A stretch of 49,488 nt of DNA from contig CAYSJW010000018.1 in assembly GCA_964431555.1 (NCBI GenBank), forward strand, positions 1 through 49,488, in the 5' to 3' direction. Of this stretch, positions 1-25,159 are shown in pieces. Position numbers and translations under genes: made by a program. Origin of the DNA: an uncultured Gammaproteobacteria bacterium (GTDB taxonomy: Bacteria; Patescibacteriota; Microgenomatia; UBA8517). Positions within the stretch are counted from its first letter, which is position 1. Each line of letters opens with the position of its first letter. The notes under the pieces were generated by a model, which saw only the letters and a program-made list of their open reading frames with translations, was not told the origin of the DNA and made no database searches.

Positions 1-557
1 TTTTTTTACCAAAATTTATATACTCCTTTAAGATACTCCTTTTTTGTAAGATTAATAAAAGACAGGAGGTTGGAAATTTTACAAAAACTTAGAAAAGAAA
101 AAAATTTCCTCGTTGATATTGTTGCCTATTGTTTTATGCCAAATCACATTCATTTTCTTCTTAAGCAGTTGAAAAATTCAGGAATTTCTATTTATATGAG
201 TAATCTGTGTAATAGTTATACACGGTATTTTAATGCAAAAAGAAAAAGAACTAGTCCTATCTTTCAGGGTAAATTTAATGCTGTTAGAATAGAAACAGAT
301 AATCAATTATTGCATGTACAAAGATATATCCATCTTAATCCCTATTCCTTTTTATTGTAAAAAACTTAAATGAGCTTGAGAATTATCCTTATTCTTCTTT
401 ACCTGAATATCTTGGTTTAACTAAGGAAGAGCATTGTAACAAAAAACTGGTATTGGAAAGTCATTTTAAGGATATTCAAGATTACAGAAAATTTATATTT
501 AACCAAGCGGATTATCAAAGAAGTGTTGAAAAGATAAAGCATTTAACATTAGAGTAG
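1..557 (+). pseudogene. IS200/IS605-family Y1 (HUH) transposase / REP-associated tyrosine transposase (RAYT)-like gene, interrupted by a -1 frame change; 5' end may lie outside the window
   Basis: The frame of ORF 70..360 stays open back to nt 1. It carries an HUH motif (CFMPNHIHFLL) and a Tyr motif (QRYIHLNP). A stop falls at 358-360, but the -1 frame (339..557) continues with KNLNELENYPYSSLPEYLGL..., the expected continuation of Y1_Tnp-type proteins (HLNP....YP.SS...YLG). The frame change maps to the T5 run at 349-353. Confidence 0.6.
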
Positions 558-631
558 AAATATACCCGAGGTGTGAAGCCATTTTACCTTAGAGGTGTGA
601 TTGTGTGGATTTAATGGTGTAATATTTTCTG

Positions 632-4480: not shown

Positions 4481-5635
4481 ATGGAAAAAATTGTCATTGT
4501 GATGCCAGCGTGGAATGAGGCAGAGAATATCAAAAAGATGATTGATGCACTTTTTGATGAGGTATTTCCGAAAATAAAGGCAGAAATGAATCTTTTGATT
4601 GTTGATAATAATTCTAATGACGGTATGACGGAGTTGGTAGGAGAGGAGATAAAAAGAAGAAAAGGACTTTATCTTATTCAACAAGGAACGGAGAAAGGTT
4701 TGGGAAACGCTTATATCAAGGGATTTAGGTACGCGGTTGAGATATTAAAGGCGGACGCTGTTATGGAGATGGATGCTGATGGTCAACATCCTCCGGAATT
4801 TGTCAAACCGATGGTCGAAGCTTATTTATCTGGTGCGGATTATGTTATTGGGTCTCGTTATATACCCGGAGGATCTATTCCCAAGGAGTGGGCTTTTTTT
4901 AGAAAATTTGTGAGTTATTTTGGAAATTTATATATTCGTTTGGTTCTTCTTAAACCTTCACTTCATGATTTGACAACTGGTTTTCGCTTGACGAAGGTTA
5001 AAGGAGTATTGGATAGGATAAATTTAGACAATCTAATGGAAAAGGAAAGATTTGCCTATAAGGTTGATCTTCTATATCAATCTATTAAAAACGCTAAAAA
5101 AACTGTTGAAGTTCCGTTGGAGTTCAGGCCAAGGACAACAGATAAGTCAAAATTTAACACAAAAGAAACAATAGCAACTCTGAAGGTAGCAACGATTCTT
5201 GGGATTAAAGACAAAGCTAAATTTATTAAGTTTGGCACGGTTGGATTTCTAGGCTATCTTGTTAATGCCTTTACTTTGTGGCTTTTCACTAAGTGGAATT
5301 TTCCGGGTCCAATTGCTTGGGGAGCTTCAACTGAATTGGCGATTGTAAATAATTTTATTTTAAATAATCTTTGGACTTTCAAGTCAGAAAAAATAACTGG
5401 ACTTGTAAATGTTTTAAAGAAATTTCTACAGTTTAATATGACCTCGGCTGGAGCTTTATTAATTCAGGTGGTTTTCGGAAGTATTTCCGATGTTCTTTTT
5501 GGTTCGCAATATAGACAACTTGCACTTCCTTTTATCATCGTGTTTTTGGTGCTTCCTTACAATTACTTTATGTACAACGTGGTTATTTGGAGAAGCTGGA
5601 ATTTAGAGAAGATCTTGAAAAGGAGTGTCAAGTAG
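4481..5635 (+). CDS. Fusion of a Dpm1/GtrB-like GT2 polyprenyl-phosphate glycosyltransferase with a C-terminal GtrA-like 4-TM domain
   Basis: GT-A motifs VMPAWNEAENI, VDNNSNDGM, MDADGQHPP and GSRY. C-terminal GtrA pattern FIKFGTVGFLGYLVNAFTLWLF ... AIVNNFILNNLWTFK plus further TM helices. Confidence 0.85.
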   Translation: MEKIVIVMPAWNEAENIKKMIDALFDEVFPKIKAEMNLLIVDNNSNDGMTELVGEEIKRRKGLYLIQQGTEKGLGNAYIKGFRYAVEILKADAVMEMDADGQHPPEFVKPMVEAYLSGADYVIGSRYIPGGSIPKEWAFFRKFVSYFGNLYIRLVLLKPSLHDLTTGFRLTKVKGVLDRINLDNLMEKERFAYKVDLLYQSIKNAKKTVEVPLEFRPRTTDKSKFNTKETIATLKVATILGIKDKAKFIKFGTVGFLGYLVNAFTLWLFTKWNFPGPIAWGASTELAIVNNFILNNLWTFKSEKITGLVNVLKKFLQFNMTSAGALLIQVVFGSISDVLFGSQYRQLALPFIIVFLVLPYNYFMYNVVIWRSWNLEKILKRSVK

Positions 5636-5858
5636 TTGTCTTTAAAATGCTTGCCTCCTGATCGGCGTTAAATATTTCCCCGCTTTTCTCCATATGACTA
5701 CTAAATATTTTTATTTTTCTTGAGGGACAATTTTCTTCAGGACAGATATCTCTTGGCGGAAAGTGAGGTTTCTGACAATATTGACAATTCGAACCTTCAA
5801 GTCTAAGAAGTTGGCCTTTTAATCTCCAATAGCGAGAAGGTGAATAATATTCTAGCAT
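5628..5858 (-). CDS. Short zinc-ribbon protein resembling the N-terminal rubredoxin-like ribbon of DUF35 OB-fold proteins (OB-fold part missing)
   Basis: 76 aa. The pattern CQYCQKPHFPPRDICPEENCPSRK matches the C..C....FPPR..CP..C pattern of DUF35_N. The 3' end overlaps the convergent GT2-GtrA gene by 8 nt. It may be a relic. Confidence 0.35.
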   Translation of the reverse strand: MLEYYSPSRYWRLKGQLLRLEGSNCQYCQKPHFPPRDICPEENCPSRKIKIFSSHMEKSGEIFNADQEASILKTTT

Positions 5859-5897
5859 GTAATATTAGTCTTTTTATAAATCTAAAAGTACACGTTC

Positions 5898-6737
5898 CTA
5901 TTGAAGGGATTTTGTGTATTGGTTGAATATTTTTATAAGTTTTAATGTATTTTTTCCCGGTTTTCCTTCAGCTATAGTTTTGTTGTCAATTTTTACAACA
6001 GGGAGTATTCCAATTGTGGTTCCGGTTAAAAAAACTTCATCGGCGGTTATTAATTCGTTTAGTTTTATGTCTTTTTCCTCGACAGAGAAATTTTTCTTTG
6101 CAAGTCTGAGAACTAAATTTCTAGTAATGCCTCTTAATATTCCGCTTTTGGGAGTTAAAAGTTTGTTTTTACGAAACAAAAAAATATTCGAAGTTGCTCC
6201 TTCTAGTACTTTTTTGTTTTTAATATAAAGGAGGGTAAAGGCTTTTTTCTTCTTAAGAGTTTTCCAAGATTTAACAAGTTCAATGTAATTTAAGGTTTTT
6301 ACCGAAGGCAAATCTCTTTGGTATTTTAGAGTTAATACTCTCACTCCTTGGGTGTACAAATTTTTATTCGGCTCTTTAAGTTTTCTGGTTGTTAAAAGAA
6401 AAGTGGGTTTTTTCCCCGGAGATAAACCGTCTTGGGATTCACCTCCCGTTACTATGATTTTGATGAGTGAATCTTTATTTTCTTTATTAATTTTAAGTAA
6501 TTTGTGGATTTCCTGTGAGATTTTATTTTTGCTGTAGGGAATTTTAAGATTAATCTTTTTGGCTGAAGTGAAAAGTCTCTGTATGTGCTCTTCTAGAAGA
6601 AATGGAGTTTTGTTGTAAGTTCTTAAAACTTCAAATATTCCATAGCCGCGCTGGATTCCGATATCAAAAATCCCAAATTTTGCTTCGTTTTCTTTTATTA
6701 TTTTCCCATTTAGAAAACAAAAATTTATTTTTTTCAT
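5898..6737 (-). CDS. Class IV (fold type IV PLP) aminotransferase: branched-chain amino acid or D-amino-acid aminotransferase
   Basis: 279 aa. N-terminal FLNGKI...EAKFGIFDIGIQRGYGIFEVLRTY...PFLLEEHIQRL. Candidate PLP-lysine in VKTLNY. C-terminal EVFLTGTT.GILPV. Confidence 0.8.
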   Translation of the reverse strand: MKKINFCFLNGKIIKENEAKFGIFDIGIQRGYGIFEVLRTYNKTPFLLEEHIQRLFTSAKKINLKIPYSKNKISQEIHKLLKINKENKDSLIKIIVTGGESQDGLSPGKKPTFLLTTRKLKEPNKNLYTQGVRVLTLKYQRDLPSVKTLNYIELVKSWKTLKKKKAFTLLYIKNKKVLEGATSNIFLFRKNKLLTPKSGILRGITRNLVLRLAKKNFSVEEKDIKLNELITADEVFLTGTTIGILPVVKIDNKTIAEGKPGKNTLKLIKIFNQYTKSLQ

Positions 6738-6798
6738 ATTTTTATGGCCATTTTTTTTGAATCATATCAGTGTCTAAGTCATTTTGTGTAAGATTTAA

Positions 6799-7956
6799 TT
6801 AAAGAAGAGGAGTCCAGTCCGATACAGGCATTACATTTTGCGAGATAAAGGAAAGAGAGAAAAGGTAAATAGGAATTAATAAAATCAAAAGTATTAATTT
6901 AAAATCTTTTTTAACCAAGGTTTCTGAAAATGCGCTAAATAAGAATGGAACAATTGGCAAAGCGTATCGCATAAGATCTCTGTGTGAGACAAAAAGTAAA
7001 GAAGTAAAAAATACACCAACAACCCATGCTAAAGGAGTTTCTTTTTTGTTTATTAAATTGATTAATCCGAGAAAGCCAAAAAGATAGATAAAGATTATCT
7101 CCTCGAGCCAGAATGTTCCCACCCATGCAGATGAATAATTAAATATCTGAAAAGGTGGGAAAAACAGATGGATATTATCGCCTGAATGAAAATAAGCGAA
7201 AAAGTCTTTAAGTTGGATTTTATAGATTAAAAATACAATTAGAAGACCAAGAGGAATAAGTGATATTGATAAATATCTTTTCAATTCAATTTTTTTGGAG
7301 GCATGCTGGGATGTTTCTATAATGATTCTTTTGAAGTCTGAAATAAAAAGAAATAAAAAGTAGGCTATAAATAGAAGAATTCCCGGAGATTTTGTGAGCT
7401 GAGCTAGTAATCCAAAGATTCCCGCTAGGAAGAATTTATTTTTTCTGAAAAAGTAAACCGATGCTATTATCATAGCCAAAAATAATGGCTCCGCTGAACC
7501 TACCGACCGAACGATTAGCCATCTTGCCGGAAAGACAGAAAAAATAAAGGTTAGCCAGAGAGCGTTTTTTTTGTTTGTGAATTCATTTGTGAAAATGTAA
7601 AAAAAGAAAATTGCCAAGATTGATGAAGTTGCAGTAACAAAAAGCATTGAATAGGGAGAGCCGAAAGTATAGGAAAAAAGTCTGATGAGTAAAGGAAATA
7701 GGGGGAAATGTGCAGCATAATATTCTGCCGGCAAGGTAAAACTGAATTTACCTACCATTTTAGGGTTATAAAGCGTCTTTGAAACAAGTATATAAAAAGG
7801 ACCATCATAATTGGCAACAATTGTCTCCATTCCGTTTTTGGGTAATGGAATTTTCCAGATGCTTTCAATACGGAAAAAGAAAGGAATCCAAATTAAAAGG
7901 GTAGGTATAAGTGAGATGGCCAAAATTGAGAAAAAAACTTTTAGCTTGAGAGCCAT
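6799..7956 (-). CDS. Polytopic membrane protein, PIG-V/GT-C-like mannosyltransferase family candidate
   Basis: 385 aa and about 10 hydrophobic helices. The first loop reads ANYDGPFYILVSKTLY ... AAHFPLFPLLIRL, resembling the WD..~Y..IA..GY / aFFPLyP pattern of Mannosyl_trans2-type proteins. Confidence 0.5.
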   Translation of the reverse strand: MALKLKVFFSILAISLIPTLLIWIPFFFRIESIWKIPLPKNGMETIVANYDGPFYILVSKTLYNPKMVGKFSFTLPAEYYAAHFPLFPLLIRLFSYTFGSPYSMLFVTATSSILAIFFFYIFTNEFTNKKNALWLTFIFSVFPARWLIVRSVGSAEPLFLAMIIASVYFFRKNKFFLAGIFGLLAQLTKSPGILLFIAYFLFLFISDFKRIIIETSQHASKKIELKRYLSISLIPLGLLIVFLIYKIQLKDFFAYFHSGDNIHLFFPPFQIFNYSSAWVGTFWLEEIIFIYLFGFLGLINLINKKETPLAWVVGVFFTSLLFVSHRDLMRYALPIVPFLFSAFSETLVKKDFKLILLILLIPIYLFSLSFISQNVMPVSDWTPLL

Positions 7957-8455: not shown

Positions 8456-8737
8456 ATGTTAATACTTTTCTCACCATTTGGTGGGAATTTTATTTTTATG
8501 AAAAGAAGACCTAGTTTCAAACTTGACTATAAACTGATCCTGAAATCATTTGTTGAAGCAAGTAGTATGAGTATTTCATTTGTCTTTTATCCAGTAATTA
8601 TATTGCTTTTGGCTACATTTCTTGGTAAAAGGTTTGGCAACTTGCCTTTATTTATAGTTAGCGCTGTCGTTTTAGGTTTTGTCATTTTTGTTTTTCAAGT
8701 TCGCAAAATTTTTAATCGATTTTCTAAAATAAAATGA
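8456..8737 (+). CDS. Small two-TM protein in the AtpI/AtpZ position of the atp operon
   Basis: Two hydrophobic helices (ISFVFYPVIILLLATFLG and LFIVSAVVLGFVIFVF). The stop overlaps the atpB start (ATGA at 8734). The ATG at 8498 (MKRRPSF...) is an alternative start because 8456 lies only ~10 nt after the putative -10 box. Confidence 0.4.
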   Translation: MLILFSPFGGNFIFMKRRPSFKLDYKLILKSFVEASSMSISFVFYPVIILLLATFLGKRFGNLPLFIVSAVVLGFVIFVFQVRKIFNRFSKIK

Positions 8738-9486
8738 AAAATTTGCACATATCTGTTTCGGCTGAGCCGATATTTCATATCGGGGGTTTGAAAATTACGA
8801 ACTCCCTTTTTATGAGTTTGTTGGTGACCTTTTTTTTGGTAATTATTGCCATTTTCGTTTATTTTCAAACACCTAAATCGGGCAAATCCAAAAAATCTTT
8901 ACTGTTTTTATTTTCGGAAATGATCATTGAGGCATTTTATAATTTTTTCAGAAATATAGCTGGTGAAATTACAGATAGATTGTTTCCTTTGGTTATAACT
9001 CTGTTTTTATTTATTATCTTTAGCAACTGGATTGGGCTTCTTCCGGGTGTTGGATCGATTGGTTTTTATGAGTATGAGGGTCAAGAAATAATATTTGTAC
9101 CTCTTTTTCGTGGACCAAATGCAGATTTAAATACAACGATCGCGCTTGCGCTTATATCAGTAGGTGTTACTCAATATTTGAGTATAAAAAACTTGGGGAT
9201 AAAAATTTATCTTGCGCGATTTATCAATTTTAAAAATCCAATAAAGTTTTTTGTTGGAATACTTGAACTAATTTCGGAGTTTGCAAAGATACTTTCTTTT
9301 TCATTCCGTCTTTTTGGTAATATTTTCGCTGGTGAAGTTCTTTTGATGGTTATGATTTTTCTTATACCGGTTTTAGTTCCTGTTCCTTTTTTGATTTTGG
9401 AGGTTTTTGTTGGTTTTATACAGGCCTTAGTTTTTACCATGTTAACAACAATATTTGTAGTTGTGGCGACGCAACACCATGATTAG
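8734..9486 (+). CDS. atpB: F0F1 ATP synthase subunit a
   Basis: 250 aa and polytopic. Hallmark FRLFGNIFAGE with the essential Arg, and LPGVGS, ADLNTT motifs. Confidence 0.93.
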   Translation: MKNLHISVSAEPIFHIGGLKITNSLFMSLLVTFFLVIIAIFVYFQTPKSGKSKKSLLFLFSEMIIEAFYNFFRNIAGEITDRLFPLVITLFLFIIFSNWIGLLPGVGSIGFYEYEGQEIIFVPLFRGPNADLNTTIALALISVGVTQYLSIKNLGIKIYLARFINFKNPIKFFVGILELISEFAKILSFSFRLFGNIFAGEVLLMVMIFLIPVLVPVPFLILEVFVGFIQALVFTMLTTIFVVVATQHHD

Positions 9487-9528
9487 ATTTTGACTATTTT
9501 TTTGTAAAAAGTGAGGAGGTGAAAATGA

Positions 9529-9747
<219 letters not shown>

Positions 9748-9772
9748 TAAATTTATTAAGCTTAATTAATAT

Positions 9773-10132
9773 ATGGAAAAACTAGGGATAGATCTTAAAT
9801 TGATAGTTGTACAGATTATAAATTTCTTGTTTTTGCTTTTGATACTAAAAAAAGTGGCTTATAAGCCTATTCTTAAAATTATTGAGGAAAGAAAAAGAAC
9901 CCTGGAGGATATTGAAAGAGAAAAGCAATCTATAGAAGTTAGTAAAAAAGAGTTAATTGAAGAGCAAAAAAAAATATTATCTGAGGCTTTAAAGGAGAAA
10001 AGAGCTATATTATCTTCTGCAAGAAGAGAAGCGGAAGCTTTGCGTAAAGAAATAATTGAAAAGGCTAATAGAGAAGCCAAAGAGATAATTACGGGGACAA
10101 AAAGACAAATCGAAAGAGATAAGGCTAGGTGA
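9773..10132 (+). CDS. atpF: F0F1 ATP synthase subunit b (short, 119 aa)
   Basis: N-terminal TM (VVQIINFLFLLLIL), then KKVAYKPILKIIEERKRTLEDI and a charged coiled coil. It ends well before the usual length of ~155-170 aa. Confidence 0.8.
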   Translation: MEKLGIDLKLIVVQIINFLFLLLILKKVAYKPILKIIEERKRTLEDIEREKQSIEVSKKELIEEQKKILSEALKEKRAILSSARREAEALRKEIIEKANREAKEIITGTKRQIERDKAR

Positions 10133-10181
10133 TTTATTAAATTTATTTTAAGTATAAATTTTTGCAAGTTCGGAAAATTCT

Positions 10182-11649
10182 ATGAATGAAGATAAAAGAA
10201 AAGGAGAGATTATTTCATTGGCAGATGGAGTAGTTTGGCTGAGTGGGATGATGGATGCTATGTTTGGTGAAATTATAGATTTTGGGAATAGTGTTTTTGG
10301 CTTGGTTATGAACTTAGAAGAAAAAAAAGTTGGGGTGATTGTTTTAGGTGGGTTTGAAAATCTAAATCTAGGCGGATTTGCTTATACTACTGGAAGACTT
10401 TTGGAAGTGGGAGTTAGTGAGGAGATGTTGGGTAGAGTTGTTGATCCTTTGGGAAAGCCAATAGATGAAGGTGCAAAATTCTCAAGGTTAAAACCGATGC
10501 CTATTGAAAGAGTAGCTCCAGGTGTGACTGAACGTAAACCCGTTGATACTCCCTTGCAAACTGGAATCAAGGCGATTGACTCCATGATTCCAATAGGAAG
10601 AGGTCAGCGTGAACTTATAATAGGGGATAGAAAAACAGGTAAGACTGCTATTGCTGTTGATACAATTATTAATCAAAAGGACTCAGATGTCATTTGTATA
10701 TATGTTTCCATTGGCCAGAAGAGAGTTAAATTGGCTGAGACTATAAAAAAACTTGATGAGTACGGTGTTTTAAAGAAGACAATAATTGTGGCTGCAACAT
10801 CTTCGGATTCGGCAGCATTAAGATATCTGGCTCCATATGCAGGATGTGCAATTGGTGAATATTTTATGGAAAAAGGAGGCCATGCTTTGGTGATTTACGA
10901 TGATTTAACAAAACACGCTTGGTCATATCGAGAAATTTCACTTCTTCTACGACGTCCAACCGGACGAGAAGCTTATCCGGGGGATATCTTTTATCTTCAT
11001 TCAAGGCTTTTGGAAAGATCGTGTCAGTTATCGGATGAAAAAGGTGGTGGTTCCTTAACTGCCTTGCCAATTGTTGAAACACAAGCTCAAGACGTCTCTG
11101 CTTATATTCCTACTAATATTATTTCTATAACAGACGGGCAAATCTATCTTGAACCGGATTTGTTTTTCGCTGGAATAAGACCGGCTTTAAATGTTGGTTT
11201 GTCGGTTTCAAGAATTGGAGGATCGGCGCAAATAAGAGCTATGAAAAAGGTGGCTGGAAAGTTAAGACTTGATCTTTCGCAGTATTATGAACTTTCAAGT
11301 TTTGCACAATTTGCCACCGATCTTGATCAAGCAACCAAACAAAAAATAGAAAGAGGGAAAAGGATTGTAGAAGTTCTCAAACAGAAGCAGTATTCTCCTA
11401 TGAAAGTTGAAGATCAGGTACTGGTTATCTATCTTGCGGTGAATGGGGTACTTGATGATGTAGCTTTGGATTTGATTCCTGAATTTCAGGAGGAGTTTTT
11501 AAAATTTGTTTACAGTAAATATGAGTCACTTGTTAGATATTTGGTAGAAAAAAAAGATTTTGATGAAAAGTTAGAGGTGAAATTAAAGAAAGTTGTTGAT
11601 GAGTTTAAAACTTTGTTTTTAAAGACTCACAAGACAGGGGAGATTGATT

Positions 11650-11672
<23 letters not shown>
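10182..11672 (+). CDS. atpA: F0F1 ATP synthase subunit alpha
   Basis: 496 aa. Walker [12 protein letters not shown], plus [26 protein letters not shown] and ITDGQIYLE. Confidence 0.97.
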
Positions 11673-14382
<2,710 letters not shown>

Positions 14383-14401
14383 AAGATTACTTCCTTTTTA
14401 T

Positions 14402-14857
14402 ATGTTGATAAAAGAGATAATGACAAAATCTGTAATTACTGTAAACCCGAATGATACTTTCTTGAAGGTGATTAAAATTTTAGTTAAGAATAAAATTTCC
14501 GGGGTTGTTGTTTTAGGAAGGGGGAAGAAAGTTTTGAGTGTTGTTTCAGAAAAAGACCTTTTTTACATGCTTTTTCCGGATCAGAAAAAGTTTTACAAGG
14601 ATATAGAATTTTACATTAATTATAAAAATATTGAGGGTGATGTAAAAAGATTGGTAAATAAAAAAGTAAAGAGTTTTATGAGAAAAAGGGTTTATACGAT
14701 AAATCCTGATGATCATGTTCTTAAGGCTTGTGCTATGTTTCTTGTTCATAACATCAGAAGGTTGCCTGTAGTGGAGAATGGAAGGTTGGTTGGTATAGTA
14801 ACGACAAACGATATATATAGAAATTATCTAAATAGATTGATTAGTAAAACTCGATAG
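14402..14857 (+). CDS. CBS-pair (Bateman) domain protein
   Basis: 151 aa with two CBS repeats (IMTKSVITVNPNDT...ISGVVVL...SVVSEKDL and FMRKRVYTINPDD...RRLPVVENGRLVGIVTTNDI). It lies 19 nt downstream of atpC on the same strand. Confidence 0.8.
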   Translation: MLIKEIMTKSVITVNPNDTFLKVIKILVKNKISGVVVLGRGKKVLSVVSEKDLFYMLFPDQKKFYKDIEFYINYKNIEGDVKRLVNKKVKSFMRKRVYTINPDDHVLKACAMFLVHNIRRLPVVENGRLVGIVTTNDIYRNYLNRLISKTR

Positions 14858-18461: not shown

Positions 18462-18493
18462 GTGTTTATATCTGTTAATTTCAGTACCGAACC

Positions 18494-18522
18494 TTGCATG
18501 TATCATATTGTAATATTAAAAT
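18494..18522 (+). promoter_or_regulatory. Promoter-like element upstream of nrnA
   Basis: TTGCAT (18494-18499), a 17-nt spacer, then TAAAAT (18517-18522). AT-rich DNA produces such matches by chance. Confidence 0.3.
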
Positions 18523-18562
18523 GGAAGGCTTGAGATGAATTTCTAAATTGAAAATTTCTAAA

Positions 18563-18630
18563 TTCAAACCGAAAGGTTTGAACGTAATCAACCCGTCGGG
18601 TTGAATAGGTTTGAACCTTTCGGGTTTTTG
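18563..18630. repeat. Imperfect palindromic repeat element, copy A (intergenic, ends 5 nt before the nrnA ATG)
   Basis: A perfect local hairpin ttcaaacc-gaaa-ggtttgaa spans 18563-18582. The central palindrome aacccgtcgggtt spans 18590-18602. The right arm ggtttgaacctttcgggt spans 18608-18625 and is followed by tttttg. Left and right arms are largely reverse-complementary around the centre at 18595-18597. By manual count, 45 of 51 positions are identical to 24584-24634, with identical internal spacing. Confidence 0.75.
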
Positions 18631-18635
18631 TAAAA

Positions 18636-22740: not shown

Positions 22741-23511
22741 ATGGGAAGTATTTTATTATCGGTAATAATCCCATGCTACAATGAGGAATCGAACCTGAAA
22801 AGGGGAGTTCTTAAATCTGTTTATAATTATCTTAAAGATAAAAATTTTAGTTGGGAAGTTATTATTTCGGATGATGGAAGTTCTGATCAAAGCCTTGACT
22901 TAATAAATAAGGAAGTTAGTAAGTATAAGAATTTTAAGGTTTTGGAAAATCCACACGGGGGGAAACCGTACGCTTTGTTTTACGGGATAAAAAAGTCAAA
23001 AGGTAATTATATTCTTTTTACTGATATGGATCAGTCAACTCCAATAACAGAACTAGAAAAACTCATTCCGTATATTGAAAATGGTTATGATGCAATAATA
23101 GGTTCTCGAGGATTAAAGAGAAAAAATTTTCCTTTATACAGGAAATTAGGTTCTTTTGTTTTTGCTTCTTTTAGAAAGTTATTTTTGCTACCAAATATCG
23201 ATGATACCCAGTGCGGTTTTAAATTGTTTAAAAAGAGTGTTCTTTTAGAGACTTTTCCCAGTTTGGAATTTTTTAAAAAGACAAAAGAAGTTAAGGGATG
23301 GACTGTAACATCTTACGATGTTGAGCTATTACATTTAATTAATAAAATCGGAGGTAAAATTCGCGAAGTGAAAGTTTTGTGGAAAGATGAGGATATAAGC
23401 ACTAGTAAAGGCAGTGCTTTAAAAAGGTATTTAAAAGAATCTGTTGACATGTTTAAACAGGTATTAAGAGTAAAAATTAATGATCTCAAGGGAATGTATT
23501 CAAAGTTGTAA
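22741..23511 (+). CDS. GT2, Dpm1/GtrB-like polyprenyl-phosphate sugar synthase
   Basis: 256 aa. Motifs VIIPCYNEESNL, SDDGSSDQS, TDMDQSTP, GSRG and QCGFKLF. Confidence 0.8.
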   Translation: MGSILLSVIIPCYNEESNLKRGVLKSVYNYLKDKNFSWEVIISDDGSSDQSLDLINKEVSKYKNFKVLENPHGGKPYALFYGIKKSKGNYILFTDMDQSTPITELEKLIPYIENGYDAIIGSRGLKRKNFPLYRKLGSFVFASFRKLFLLPNIDDTQCGFKLFKKSVLLETFPSLEFFKKTKEVKGWTVTSYDVELLHLINKIGGKIREVKVLWKDEDISTSKGSALKRYLKESVDMFKQVLRVKINDLKGMYSKL

Positions 23512-23512
23512 G

Positions 23513-25159
23513 ATGATAAAGATAATTTTGAAGTGGAAAGTTTTTATTTTTTGGTTTTTTTTTATTTTGTTTTGCTCTTTTGGTCTTCGTGTTTTAAGAA
23601 TTTATTTTGATAAACAGCCAATATTTGGCGACGAGGCAATTTATATACATTGGTCTCAAATGATGAGATCTGAACCATCATTGAGGTTTGTCCCTTTATC
23701 TGATGGAAAACAACCTCTTTTTATGTGGATAACAATACCATTTTTAAAGATTTTTAATGACCCGTTATTTGCAGGAAGAATTTTGTCCGCAATTTGTGGT
23801 TTGATCTCAACGGGAGGAATTATGATTTTATCGCTTTTATTATTTGAATCAGTAAAGGCTAGTTTAGTTTCTGGATTAATCTACGCGATTTCCCCATTTA
23901 CAGTTTTTTTTGATTCTATGGCTCTTTCTGATTCTATGCTTTCTATGTTTGGAGTTTTATTTATTCTTTTTACTATTATTACTATAAAGAAAGTAAGATT
24001 AGATACCGCGATTTTAGCCGGGTTTTGTTTAGGAGGAGCTTTATTGACCAAATCTCCAGCTTTAATTTTTGTTTTGTTTTTACCATTAACATTATTTATT
24101 TATAATTGGCCTAAGAAGTTTAAGGACAAATTTTATGATCTTTCTGTTTTTGTTTTTCTTTTTACCTTCACTATTTCGATAGCTTACGGGTTTTATAACA
24201 TATTAAGATTAGGACCTAATTTTCATATGATATCTATAAGAAATAAGGATTATGTTTATCCACTTAATCACTTGGTAGAAAGTTTTTTCGATCCGCTTTT
24301 ACCCTTTTTAAGTAGAATCTGGGAATATTTTTGGATAATGGGACCAAGTTTTATTGTATTACTATTTTTAGCGGGACTTTATTGGGGCTTTAAAAAGTTT
24401 AGAAGAGAAACATTGGTTTTAGTTGCCTTGGGTTTTATACCTATTTTCGTTGTTGCTGAATTTTCAAAAATATTGACAGCTCGTTATATTTATTTTTCCA
24501 TCCCTTATTTATTTATTTTAACTTCTTTGTTTTTTTACCCATTTGATCCTATTAACAAGTTTGTTTTTACTAAAAAGGGGAGGGGTTTGAACCTATTTAA
24601 CCCGTCGGGTTATTTAGGTTTGAACCTTTCGGGTCGGTTCGGAAATTTGTTTGGAAAAAAAATTTATTTTTTATCTTTTTTGACTTTTTTTATATTTATT
24701 TTTCATAGTCTTTACATTGATTATCTTCTTATAACTGAACCTCAATCAGCTAATCTTCCAAGAAGCGAAAGGTCAGGATATTTTGAAGAGTGGACATCGG
24801 GATATGGTATTAAAGAAATATCAATGTATTTGAGAAATCTTTATGAAAATAAACCGAACGAGAAAATAGTAGTAGGGACAGAGGGGTATTTTGGAACTTT
24901 GCCCGATGGATTGCAGATATATTTAAATGATTTACCTGAAATAACCGTGGTGGGGGTCGGACAGCCAATAAGAGAAATTCCCAAACCGCTTATCGAGTCT
25001 AAAGTTTCAGGGAATAAAACGTATCTTGTAGTGAATTCATCAAGGTTATTATTAAATTTAGACAACCCTAAAATTAAGCTTATTGAGAAGTTTCCAAAAG
25101 CACTTATGCCCGATAATACTCGAGAAGAACTTTATTTAATTGAAATTATCGGCAGTTAG
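23513..25159 (+). CDS. ArnT/PMT_2 (GT39-like) polytopic membrane glycosyltransferase carrying an in-frame palindromic-repeat insertion
   Basis: After TM1 the sequence reads FGDEAIYIHWSQMM...PLSDGKQPLFMW. Many TM helices follow, then a C-terminal soluble domain (EGYFGTLPDGLQIYL...). I prefer the ATG at 23513 (TAAGATG junction) over 23480. Confidence 0.7.
   Translation: MIKIILKWKVFIFWFFFILFCSFGLRVLRIYFDKQPIFGDEAIYIHWSQMMRSEPSLRFVPLSDGKQPLFMWITIPFLKIFNDPLFAGRILSAICGLISTGGIMILSLLLFESVKASLVSGLIYAISPFTVFFDSMALSDSMLSMFGVLFILFTIITIKKVRLDTAILAGFCLGGALLTKSPALIFVLFLPLTLFIYNWPKKFKDKFYDLSVFVFLFTFTISIAYGFYNILRLGPNFHMISIRNKDYVYPLNHLVESFFDPLLPFLSRIWEYFWIMGPSFIVLLFLAGLYWGFKKFRRETLVLVALGFIPIFVVAEFSKILTARYIYFSIPYLFILTSLFFYPFDPINKFVFTKKGRGLNLFNPSGYLGLNLSGRFGNLFGKKIYFLSFLTFFIFIFHSLYIDYLLITEPQSANLPRSERSGYFEEWTSGYGIKEISMYLRNLYENKPNEKIVVGTEGYFGTLPDGLQIYLNDLPEITVVGVGQPIREIPKPLIESKVSGNKTYLVVNSSRLLLNLDNPKIKLIEKFPKALMPDNTREELYLIEIIGS
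24581..24642. repeat. Imperfect palindromic repeat element, copy B (inside CDS 23513..25159, read in frame)
   Basis: ggtttgaac (24584-24592), aacccgtcgggtt (24599-24611) and ggtttgaacctttcgggt (24617-24634) have the same order and spacing as copy A. The element is translated as GLNLFNPSGYLGLNLSGRFG between two hydrophobic helices. Confidence 0.75.

Follow-up and report, generated by a model that had tools for sequence, protein, structure and literature searches.

A probable REPIN-like palindrome family linked to a RAYT-type transposase gene in Woesebacteria/Microgenomates, with one copy inside a GT-C glycosyltransferase gene

The 49,488-nt stretch of contig CAYSJW010000018.1 analyzed here (the window, i.e., this whole stretch at its full length) carries two copies of one palindromic sequence, of which copy B is intergenic and copy A lies inside a gene for a membrane glycosyltransferase of superfamily C (GT-C), where it is read through in frame. 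The locus thus raises the question of what kind of element this palindrome is, how it came to be part of a coding sequence, and what has kept it there. The explanation we consider likely is that both copies belong to a family resembling REPINs (doublets of repetitive extragenic palindromic, or REP, sequences forming hairpins), that this family is tied to a REP-associated tyrosine transposase (RAYT) in Woesebacteria/Microgenomates, and that copy A is an old in-frame insertion. A preliminary description of the window, made from its letters, had proposed a mobile repeat similar to the Rickettsia palindromic elements (RPEs); the dispersed palindrome read through in frame is retained from that proposal, but its type is revised to REP/REPIN with a RAYT-like gene.

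Two copies of a palindrome and their folding

The core repeat pair at positions 18575-18625 and 24584-24634 was recovered by a repeat search of the window (family D7), with 45 of 51 bases (88%) identical, and a gapped 51-nt pattern matched the window exactly twice, against zero matches expected from 100 dinucleotide-preserving shuffles. All six differences between the copies fall inside the two spacers, one being compensatory, with C-G in copy B and T-A in copy A. The number of copies, their coordinates, their identity, and the confinement of the differences to the spacers, all reported in the preliminary description, are reproduced. Beyond the core the flanks of copies A and B are not homologous, and for this reason segmental duplication is excluded as the origin of the pair.

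The palindrome is imperfect and is centered, as described earlier, on the GTC of CCCGTCGGG. The RNA fold of copy B (18569-18623) has an energy of -35.0 kcal/mol (z -6.4), and that of copy A (24580-24630) an energy of -30.7 kcal/mol (z -3.6). Antisense folds are weaker (-29.8 kcal/mol for copy B and -19.0 kcal/mol for copy A), owing to several pairs that are G.U in the sense strand. Each of the two copies forms the core of a compound hairpin of 51-55 nt, and the functional unit spans 51-57 nt; the 51-nt element proposed originally was thus right in its core but slightly too short on the 5' side. The covariance model built for the element (R1) scores copy A at 72.9 bits (24575-24637) and found no third full copy in the window. 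The earlier statement that the window holds no further copies is accordingly valid for full-length elements, but not for a degenerate variant half-copy at 565-603, which is considered below with the transposase gene.

Copy B is followed by TTTTT and ends 12 nt 5' of the ATG (18636) of a DHH/DHHA1 gene. A terminator role of copy B is suggested by its fold and this T-run, as judged by eye. The terminator scan did not call copy B, the stem of which is long and contains mismatches, and in copy A it called only the inner hairpin. Within the region 18462-18635, the 12 nt left between copy B and the DHH/DHHA1 start codon are too few to hold a promoter or any obvious Shine-Dalgarno sequence. An alternative 8-bp hairpin with a GAAA loop (TTCAAACC-GAAA-GGTTTGAA) can be formed by the left arm, a feature peculiar to copy B. 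No Rfam family matched anywhere in the window at gathering thresholds, and a search around copy B at E up to 10 returned sub-threshold microRNA-hairpin noise only; tRNA and tmRNA genes were likewise not found in the window.

Two other classes of repeat were considered and rejected. Compared by eye with the integron attC consensus, RYYYAAC and GTTRRRY, the arms do not match. The template and variable repeats of diversity-generating retroelements are set aside since the differences between the copies are not adenine-specific, and no reverse transcriptase was noticed among the open reading frames examined.

A repeat within a coding sequence and its conservation

The gene carrying copy A encodes a protein with Pfam matches to PMT_2 (7.6e-14) and PMT (1.6e-7). 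Its AlphaFold2 model (mean predicted local distance difference test score, pLDDT, 83; predicted template modeling score, pTM, 0.85) retrieved the GT-C enzymes STT3, PglB, and ArnT in Foldseek, at E values between 3e-9 and 1e-6. The modeled protein is thus a GT-C enzyme, with the multi-transmembrane fold of the PMT/ArnT type and a C-terminal soluble domain. Those of its homologues that are named by source belong to Candidatus Woesebacteria, which makes the window a CPR/Patescibacteria contig. Between the motifs TARY(I/V) and PRSERSGY the loop is 102 aa long, compared with 64-66 aa in most of approximately 100 orthologues; the alignment that the preliminary description had called for therefore reveals a lineage-specific indel at copy A. 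The inserted residues 349-376 are located between the helix 330-354 and the last transmembrane helix (376-408) of the AlphaFold2 model, in agreement with the loop position before the last transmembrane segment proposed previously, and have pLDDT values below 50; the only other stretch below this value is 420-424. The read-through peptide given earlier (GLNLFNPSGYLGLNLSGRFG) is correct, and the predicted tryptic peptide for the insert of the GT-C protein is GLNLFNPSGYLGLNLSGR. GT-C enzymes have the N-terminus inside and the C-terminal soluble domain outside, and because of this topology and of the Lys and Arg residues flanking the insert, the loop carrying copy A is probably cytoplasmic.

Read in the frame of the gene, the family consensus contains a stop codon (GGT TGA ATA), which is replaced in the in-gene copies, by TAT in the window and in L001, where the 5' side has undergone a compensatory change, and by TGT in L002. 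The frame is open and the length divisible by three in all 11 in-gene variants examined, those with nested inserts included. Judging from these open frames and from the loss of the consensus TGA, copy A is probably translated. Programmed translational bypass of the T4 gene 60 or 'byp' type was rejected on the same count of open variants with lengths that are multiples of three.

The same element occupies the same site in L001 (P0008, 56% amino acid identity) and L002 (P0002, 67%). Compared with L001, the 17 codons of the element agree at 94% of nucleotides and 88% of third positions, whereas the rest of the gene agrees at 60 and 39%, respectively; the corresponding values for L002 are 86 and 88% within the element versus 69 and 46% outside it. 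No other stretch of 17 codons in the gene is as well conserved against L001, and this peak of conservation does not extend past the element. Variant architectures are found in further orthologues with extra loop residues, namely L094 (L003 scores identically), L095, L096, L097, and L007. The inner stem AACCC/GGGTT is changed to CACCC/GGGTG or CACCT/AGGTG, and an outer-arm U-A pair is changed to G-C, in the variants L094, L095, L097, and L007. The element has 25 base pairs, and in an alignment of 13 copies 84.9% of the cells were paired and nine pairs were changed on both sides. The covariation score was 0.206, compared with 0.142 for shuffled alignments (none of 500 shuffles reached 0.206) and at most 0.07 for slid controls, a result that derives from few independent lineages, with several changes shared by the three variant sequences and hence few independent events.

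The element is degenerate in L004-L006 and absent from P0003, P0005, and P0012/L105. In a quick neighbor-joining tree of the proteins, calculated with the loop removed, the insert-bearing orthologues fall into three neighboring clades, where they are interspersed with insert-less or decayed ones, and a large sister group has no insert, with the exception of P0049. A derived left arm, G(G/T)GA(A/G)GGG, in place of the family consensus CCGAAAGG, is common to the in-gene copies in the window, L001, L002, and L094; therefore, one old insertion is favored over repeated independent hits. Part of this in-gene arm may be native sequence, given that the element-less protein of L105 (P0012) reads KKGRGL-V-KKF and has kept the KKGRGL codons. 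In the alignment of L105:3997-4098 with window positions 24569-24664, a single Val codon replaces 22 codons of the window. The L105 locus could be either an empty or an excised site, and it retains the codons matching the left flank and left arm. Deletion between GTTTG direct repeats was rejected for this locus, since the 64 nt separating the repeats are not divisible by three.

By these sequence comparisons, the insertion of copy A is old, maintained at the nucleotide level, and common to diverged orthologues. The depth and strictness of this conservation are the one unusual feature of the intragenic copy. Since the loop and spacer bases and the third codon positions are conserved as well, an explanation beyond protein coding is needed; it could be either selection on the hairpin or homogenization against other genomic copies. 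At the same time, loss or decay is frequent in close relatives, and the element is therefore dispensable.

Some in-gene elements are more complex. Extra hairpins are nested in the apical loop at L098:2024-2115 and L099:5817-5915 with the frame kept (GGGACGT-caa-ACGTCCC plus CCACG...GTGGC in L099), an arrangement suggesting that further palindromic insertions target the apex of the hairpin. Two tandem REP-like units (AKLIHPPGG... followed by ANLFHPKGV...) are present in the loop at L094:6812-6943 and L099:5766-5924, as a small intragenic cluster resembling a bacterial interspersed mosaic element.

Dispersed copies and the associated transposase gene

Outside the window the family has the consensus CCGAAAGGTTYRAAC-CTAWTC-AACCCGTCGGGTT-GAWTAG-GTTYRAACCTTTCGG, an imperfect palindrome of ~55 nt. 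The pattern AACCCGTCGGGTT-N(8-14)-AACCTTTCGG matched 11 contigs in a metagenome scan. All 11 of these copies are intergenic, mostly from a few to a few hundred bases past a stop codon, and some are followed by a T-run. The arms carry TTTGAA or TTCAAA independently of each other, and the four combinations, all of which occur, yield tandem G.U pairs, Watson-Crick pairs, or C.A mismatches. The arm columns 14-15 and 48-49 correspond to window positions 18579-18580 and 18612-18613 in copy B and to 24588-24589 and 24621-24622 in copy A. Both TTTGAA and TTCAAA are one transition away from the palindromic TTCGAA, which was seen once, in L099. The 9-nt direct repeat GGTTTGAAC was also considered as a target-site duplication around an inner 24-nt palindrome and rejected, as the arms vary independently and the half-copies adjacent to RAYT genes consist of an arm and the inner hairpin as one unit.

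The link to a transposase gene came from the R1 search, which was run over 1.64 Mb of fetched DNA and found a second, diverged copy in L092 (1658-1716, 32 bits), just 5' of a gene for a 231-aa protein; the stop codon of this gene is followed by a half-copy, the same one that the pattern scan had found. The protein contains the HUH motif PDHFHFLL and the tyrosine motif SRYIHLNP and matches Pfam Y1_Tnp (5.8e-8); its sole NCBIfam match is REP_Tyr_transpos (NF047646, 1.5e-11, 44.4 bits). A phmmer search with the RAYT sequence against the PDB gave nothing meaningful. The family has 674 relatives with E values of at most 1e-5; their typical length is 221-224 aa, and one of them was named 'REP element-mobilizing transposase RayT' by the Joint Genome Institute (JGI). 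Residues H97, H99, and Y157 are invariant among 28 homologues, and the protein has both the HUH motif and the catalytic tyrosine of the Y1 transposase fold.

Three further loci were fetched for homologues with 59-62% identity (L101/L102 and L103/L104 each represent one gene on two contigs), and with L092 included, the genes of the four independent loci encode 222-231 aa. Copies of the element flank the gene in each case. In L103/L104 a full copy (75.6 bits) precedes the ATG by ~60 nt and a half copy follows the gene, and L101/L102 has a full copy upstream and a half copy downstream, both of the CACCC/GGGTG subtype, which is also that of the in-gene variants of L094-L097. At L100 a full variant directly follows the stop codon, the upstream side being lost at the contig end. 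Together with L092, these loci have the arrangement called a REPtron, in which copies flank a RAYT gene. The transposase gene is located directly upstream of holB (DNA_pol3_delta2)-gyrB in L092:1736-5194 and L100:29-3496, and within a type IV pilus cluster near holB in L101:10001-16857 and L103:3619-14287. This conserved neighborhood agrees better with vertical inheritance of a single-copy gene than with an insertion sequence (IS).

A remnant of such a gene is present at the window start. Positions 28-348 correspond to residues 58-164 and positions 375-554 to residues 173-231 of the L092 protein, in different frames, with the motifs MPNHIHFLL and QRYIHLNP. The contig end removes ~48 codons from the 5' side, a frameshift lies somewhere between 348 and 375, and the reading frame ends with TAG at 555-557. 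The frameshift adjoins a T5/A6 run and represents either a pseudogene or an assembly error. The variant half-element that follows has the same position as the 3' half-REPs of other RAYT loci (L101, L092, and L103). It was assigned by this position and by sequence similarity, its fold being no better than that of shuffled sequence.

Features of the window discussed in the text
Feature	Position	Strand	Remarks
Copy A, REPIN-like compound hairpin in the GT-C gene	24580..24632	+	in-frame reading (R)GLNLFNPSGYLGLNLSG
Copy B, intergenic full-length element, 55 nt	18569..18623	+	22 Watson-Crick and 2 G.T pairs; 82.4 bits with covariance model R1
RAYT-like HUH/Y1 transposase remnant	28..557	+	split over two frames, with 44% and 38% identity to the L092 protein
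Variant half-element CCCGAGGTGTGAAGCCATTTTACCTTAGAGGTGTGATTG	565..603	+	starts 8 nt past the RAYT stop; CACC/GGTG subtype
GT-C membrane glycosyltransferase (PMT_2/PMT, ArnT/STT3-like), 548 aa	23513..25159	+	alternative ATG at 23480
Lineage-specific extra loop sequence	24557..24655	+	element and ~8 extra codons per side relative to L001 and L002; 21 codons missing here from L105

The GT-C gene lies in a large glycosylation island (window positions 4481-7956 and 15814-47791) that dominates the window and comprises five or more PMT_2/GT-C paralogues, two or more PTPS_related membrane proteins, and several genes for family 2 glycosyltransferases (GT2). The direct repeats D2, D4, D6, and D12 look like similarity of paralogous genes (two PTPS_related genes for D2 and two GT2 genes for D6). 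An F-type ATP synthase operon occupies 8734-14857.

Competing explanations and relation to known systems

In the favored explanation, the element would consist of two inverted REP half-sites that share a central hairpin of 5-7 bp, and the family would be a low-copy one, presumably spread by its associated single-copy RAYT-type HUH/Y1 tyrosine transposase. A typical RAYT locus would have a full element 5' and a half element 3' of the gene, and extragenic copies, copy B among them, would come to lie after stop codons or between co-directional genes, where their hairpins probably act, as RNA or DNA, as terminators or stabilizers of mRNA 3' ends. Copy A would have been inserted long ago into the short loop that joins the last two transmembrane helices of the GT-C enzyme; with the consensus TGA lost, some 17-20 extra disordered residues would be translated and tolerated by the enzyme.

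Several observations weigh against this explanation. Neither a transposition event nor a pair of empty and filled sites within one population was seen. The copy number per genome seems low, and classical REPINs number tens to hundreds per genome: the covariance model detected no extragenic copies in ~1.5 Mb of GT-C gene neighborhoods from 80 related genomes. The strict pattern GGTTTGAAC-N(14-34)-GGTTTGAACCTTTCGG had no match in one genome for each of 185,579 GTDB species, although this pattern is overly strict, as the arms alternate between TTTGAA and TTCAAA. A scan of viral contigs gave no copies either. No terminal GTAG/CTAC tag is conserved in the alignment of 13 copies, and CGTC is confined to the apical loop CCCGTCGGG. 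The NF047646 score of the transposase falls under the curated cut-off of 80 bits, and the family profile reaches no solved RAYT in the PDB, its only match being TnpA of ISDra2 (E 0.027). Finally, the transposase remnant of the window is frameshifted and its half-element is of another subtype, so that copies A and B may be orphans here.

The ISDra2 match leads to a second view of the transposase, in which the elements are terminal hairpins of an autonomous IS200/IS605-like IS (a 'TIRtron') and copies A and B are solo ends or derivatives of the type of miniature inverted-repeat transposable elements. The Pfam description of Y1_Tnp ('Transposase IS200 like'), the hairpins on both sides of the gene, and the many homologues on very short contigs, as expected for repeated IS copies, are in line with it. 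Nonetheless, we regard this origin as improbable: the gene neighborhood is conserved among homologues with 49-62% identity, as fits vertical single-copy inheritance, the protein has 222 aa compared with 140-143 residues in the PDB-matched IS200 TnpA chains, a tnpB partner gene is absent, and the full and half elements flanking the gene are asymmetric in the manner of a REPtron. Even less can be said for an ordinary ancestral coding sequence, or a local duplication, with a coincidental or segmental likeness to copy B. There are just two copies in the window, and the in-gene left arm AAGGGGAGGGG is unlike the consensus CCGAAAGG and resembles the KKGRGL codons of the element-less L105. However, zero chance matches are expected, the flanks are not homologous, and identical cores occur at unlinked intergenic sites of other assemblies and beside transposase genes. 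The orthologues that have the segment carry the nucleotide palindrome, and most orthologues are without it. Both alternatives raised in the preliminary description, an ancestral peptide and a segmental duplication limited to two copies with homologous flanks, thus fail, and this origin is effectively refuted and extremely improbable.

A further possibility concerns the maintenance of copy A and overlaps with the favored explanation rather than excluding it. Here, copy A would be an exapted cis-element kept by purifying selection in mRNA or DNA in several Woesebacteria lineages, its REP origin being mere history. It might function as an internal attenuator, as an RNase barrier in the glycosylation operon, as a determinant of transcript boundary or stability, as a protein-binding site, as a pause in translation ahead of the last transmembrane helix, or as a site that is still recognized and 'refreshed' by RAYT. 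The excess of third-position identity limited to the element (88 versus 39% in the comparison with L001), the compensatory changes in the stem, and the retention of the element in three ortholog clades argue for such a role. The stronger sense than antisense fold of copy A (-30.7 versus -19.0 kcal/mol) and the pairing of the six in-gene copies, which amounts to 15 G.U pairs on the sense strand versus 3 A.C pairs, point to RNA. On the other hand, in many close orthologues the element has been lost or has decayed (P0003, P0005, P0012/L105, and L004-L006), loop and spacer bases are conserved beyond what a pure pairing constraint predicts, and copy A has neither an Rfam family match nor a T-run behind it. 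Exaptation is therefore possible, but on balance doubtful.

Returning to the REPIN-RAYT explanation, it has several consequences. It places a REP/REPIN-RAYT-like system in the streamlined genomes of the candidate phyla radiation (CPR), and the covariance model and the consensus can be used for finding more copies. An embedded copy traceable to ~50% protein identity constitutes a natural experiment in which the persistence of REPINs and selection on their hairpins are measurable. If exaptation were true, a selfish palindrome in a coding sequence would have been kept longer and more strictly than the protein sequence around it. With respect to annotation, the odd low-complexity loop of this GT-C family is repeat-derived, and these repeats probably account for broken assemblies and short contigs near the transposase gene. 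Little repeated DNA is expected in ultra-small, streamlined CPR genomes, and to our knowledge work on REP/REPIN-RAYT systems has dealt almost exclusively with Proteobacteria. In the literature searched we found no description of a REP-RAYT system in CPR/Patescibacteria.

The features that define REPs, REPINs, and RAYTs have been described previously (PMC3116915; PMC5581495; PMC3733652). The element studied here is a short imperfect palindrome with a stable hairpin, as seen from the fold energies and pairing, and copies of it are dispersed and extragenic in the 11 metagenome contigs, as is copy B in the window. The closest known counterparts are the REP/REPIN-RAYT systems of E. coli and Pseudomonas (Bertels and Rainey, 2011, PMC3116915; Bertels et al., 2017, PMC5581495), which likewise have inverted half-sites forming one long hairpin and lineage-specific subtypes that differ between transposase lineages; the position of most copies outside and 3' of genes, and an apparently single HUH/Y1 gene flanked by copies in a conserved neighborhood, also seem to be shared. 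In contrast to these systems, the host here is a member of CPR/Patescibacteria with a genome of ~1 Mb, the copy number is apparently low, the GTAG tag is absent, the half-sites share the central hairpin with no spacer between them, the protein scores below the NCBIfam cut-off, and the copy studied is intragenic. IS200/IS605 TnpA proteins (ISDra2 and IS608) are similar in the HUH motif and catalytic tyrosine, and probably in the recognition of hairpins near the element ends, but the gene described here is apparently single-copy, syntenic, and longer, and its hairpins are additionally found dispersed as solo units.

The in-frame intragenic behavior of a palindrome is already known, and what is new is the lineage. 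The classic case is that of the Rickettsia RPEs (PMC3733652), of which RPE-1 is described as a longer palindromic insertion and the CGTC-tagged members have no dedicated transposase known (PMC3733652). RPE-1 to RPE-8 resemble copy A as in-frame palindromes that are translated as surface or loop segments and kept at orthologous sites; it is their behavior that is compared here. RPEs are confined to Rickettsia, and the host here is Woesebacteria-like. Such events had been called rare in the preliminary description, and they are indeed known, but in-frame intragenic REPs occur in several phyla (PMC3733652) and are less rare than was assumed. REP units or dimers lying wholly inside open reading frames, in frame and contributing ~20-30 residues, were reported from several species (Di Nocera et al., 2013, PMC3733652), and these intragenic GTAG/CGTC REPs are thought to be neutral, given their loop or linker positions (PMC3733652). 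Copy A shares with them the in-frame repeat within an open reading frame and the location in a loop, whereas it belongs to an untagged, different family in another phylum and has been traced to ~50% protein identity with conservation at the nucleotide level and covariation.

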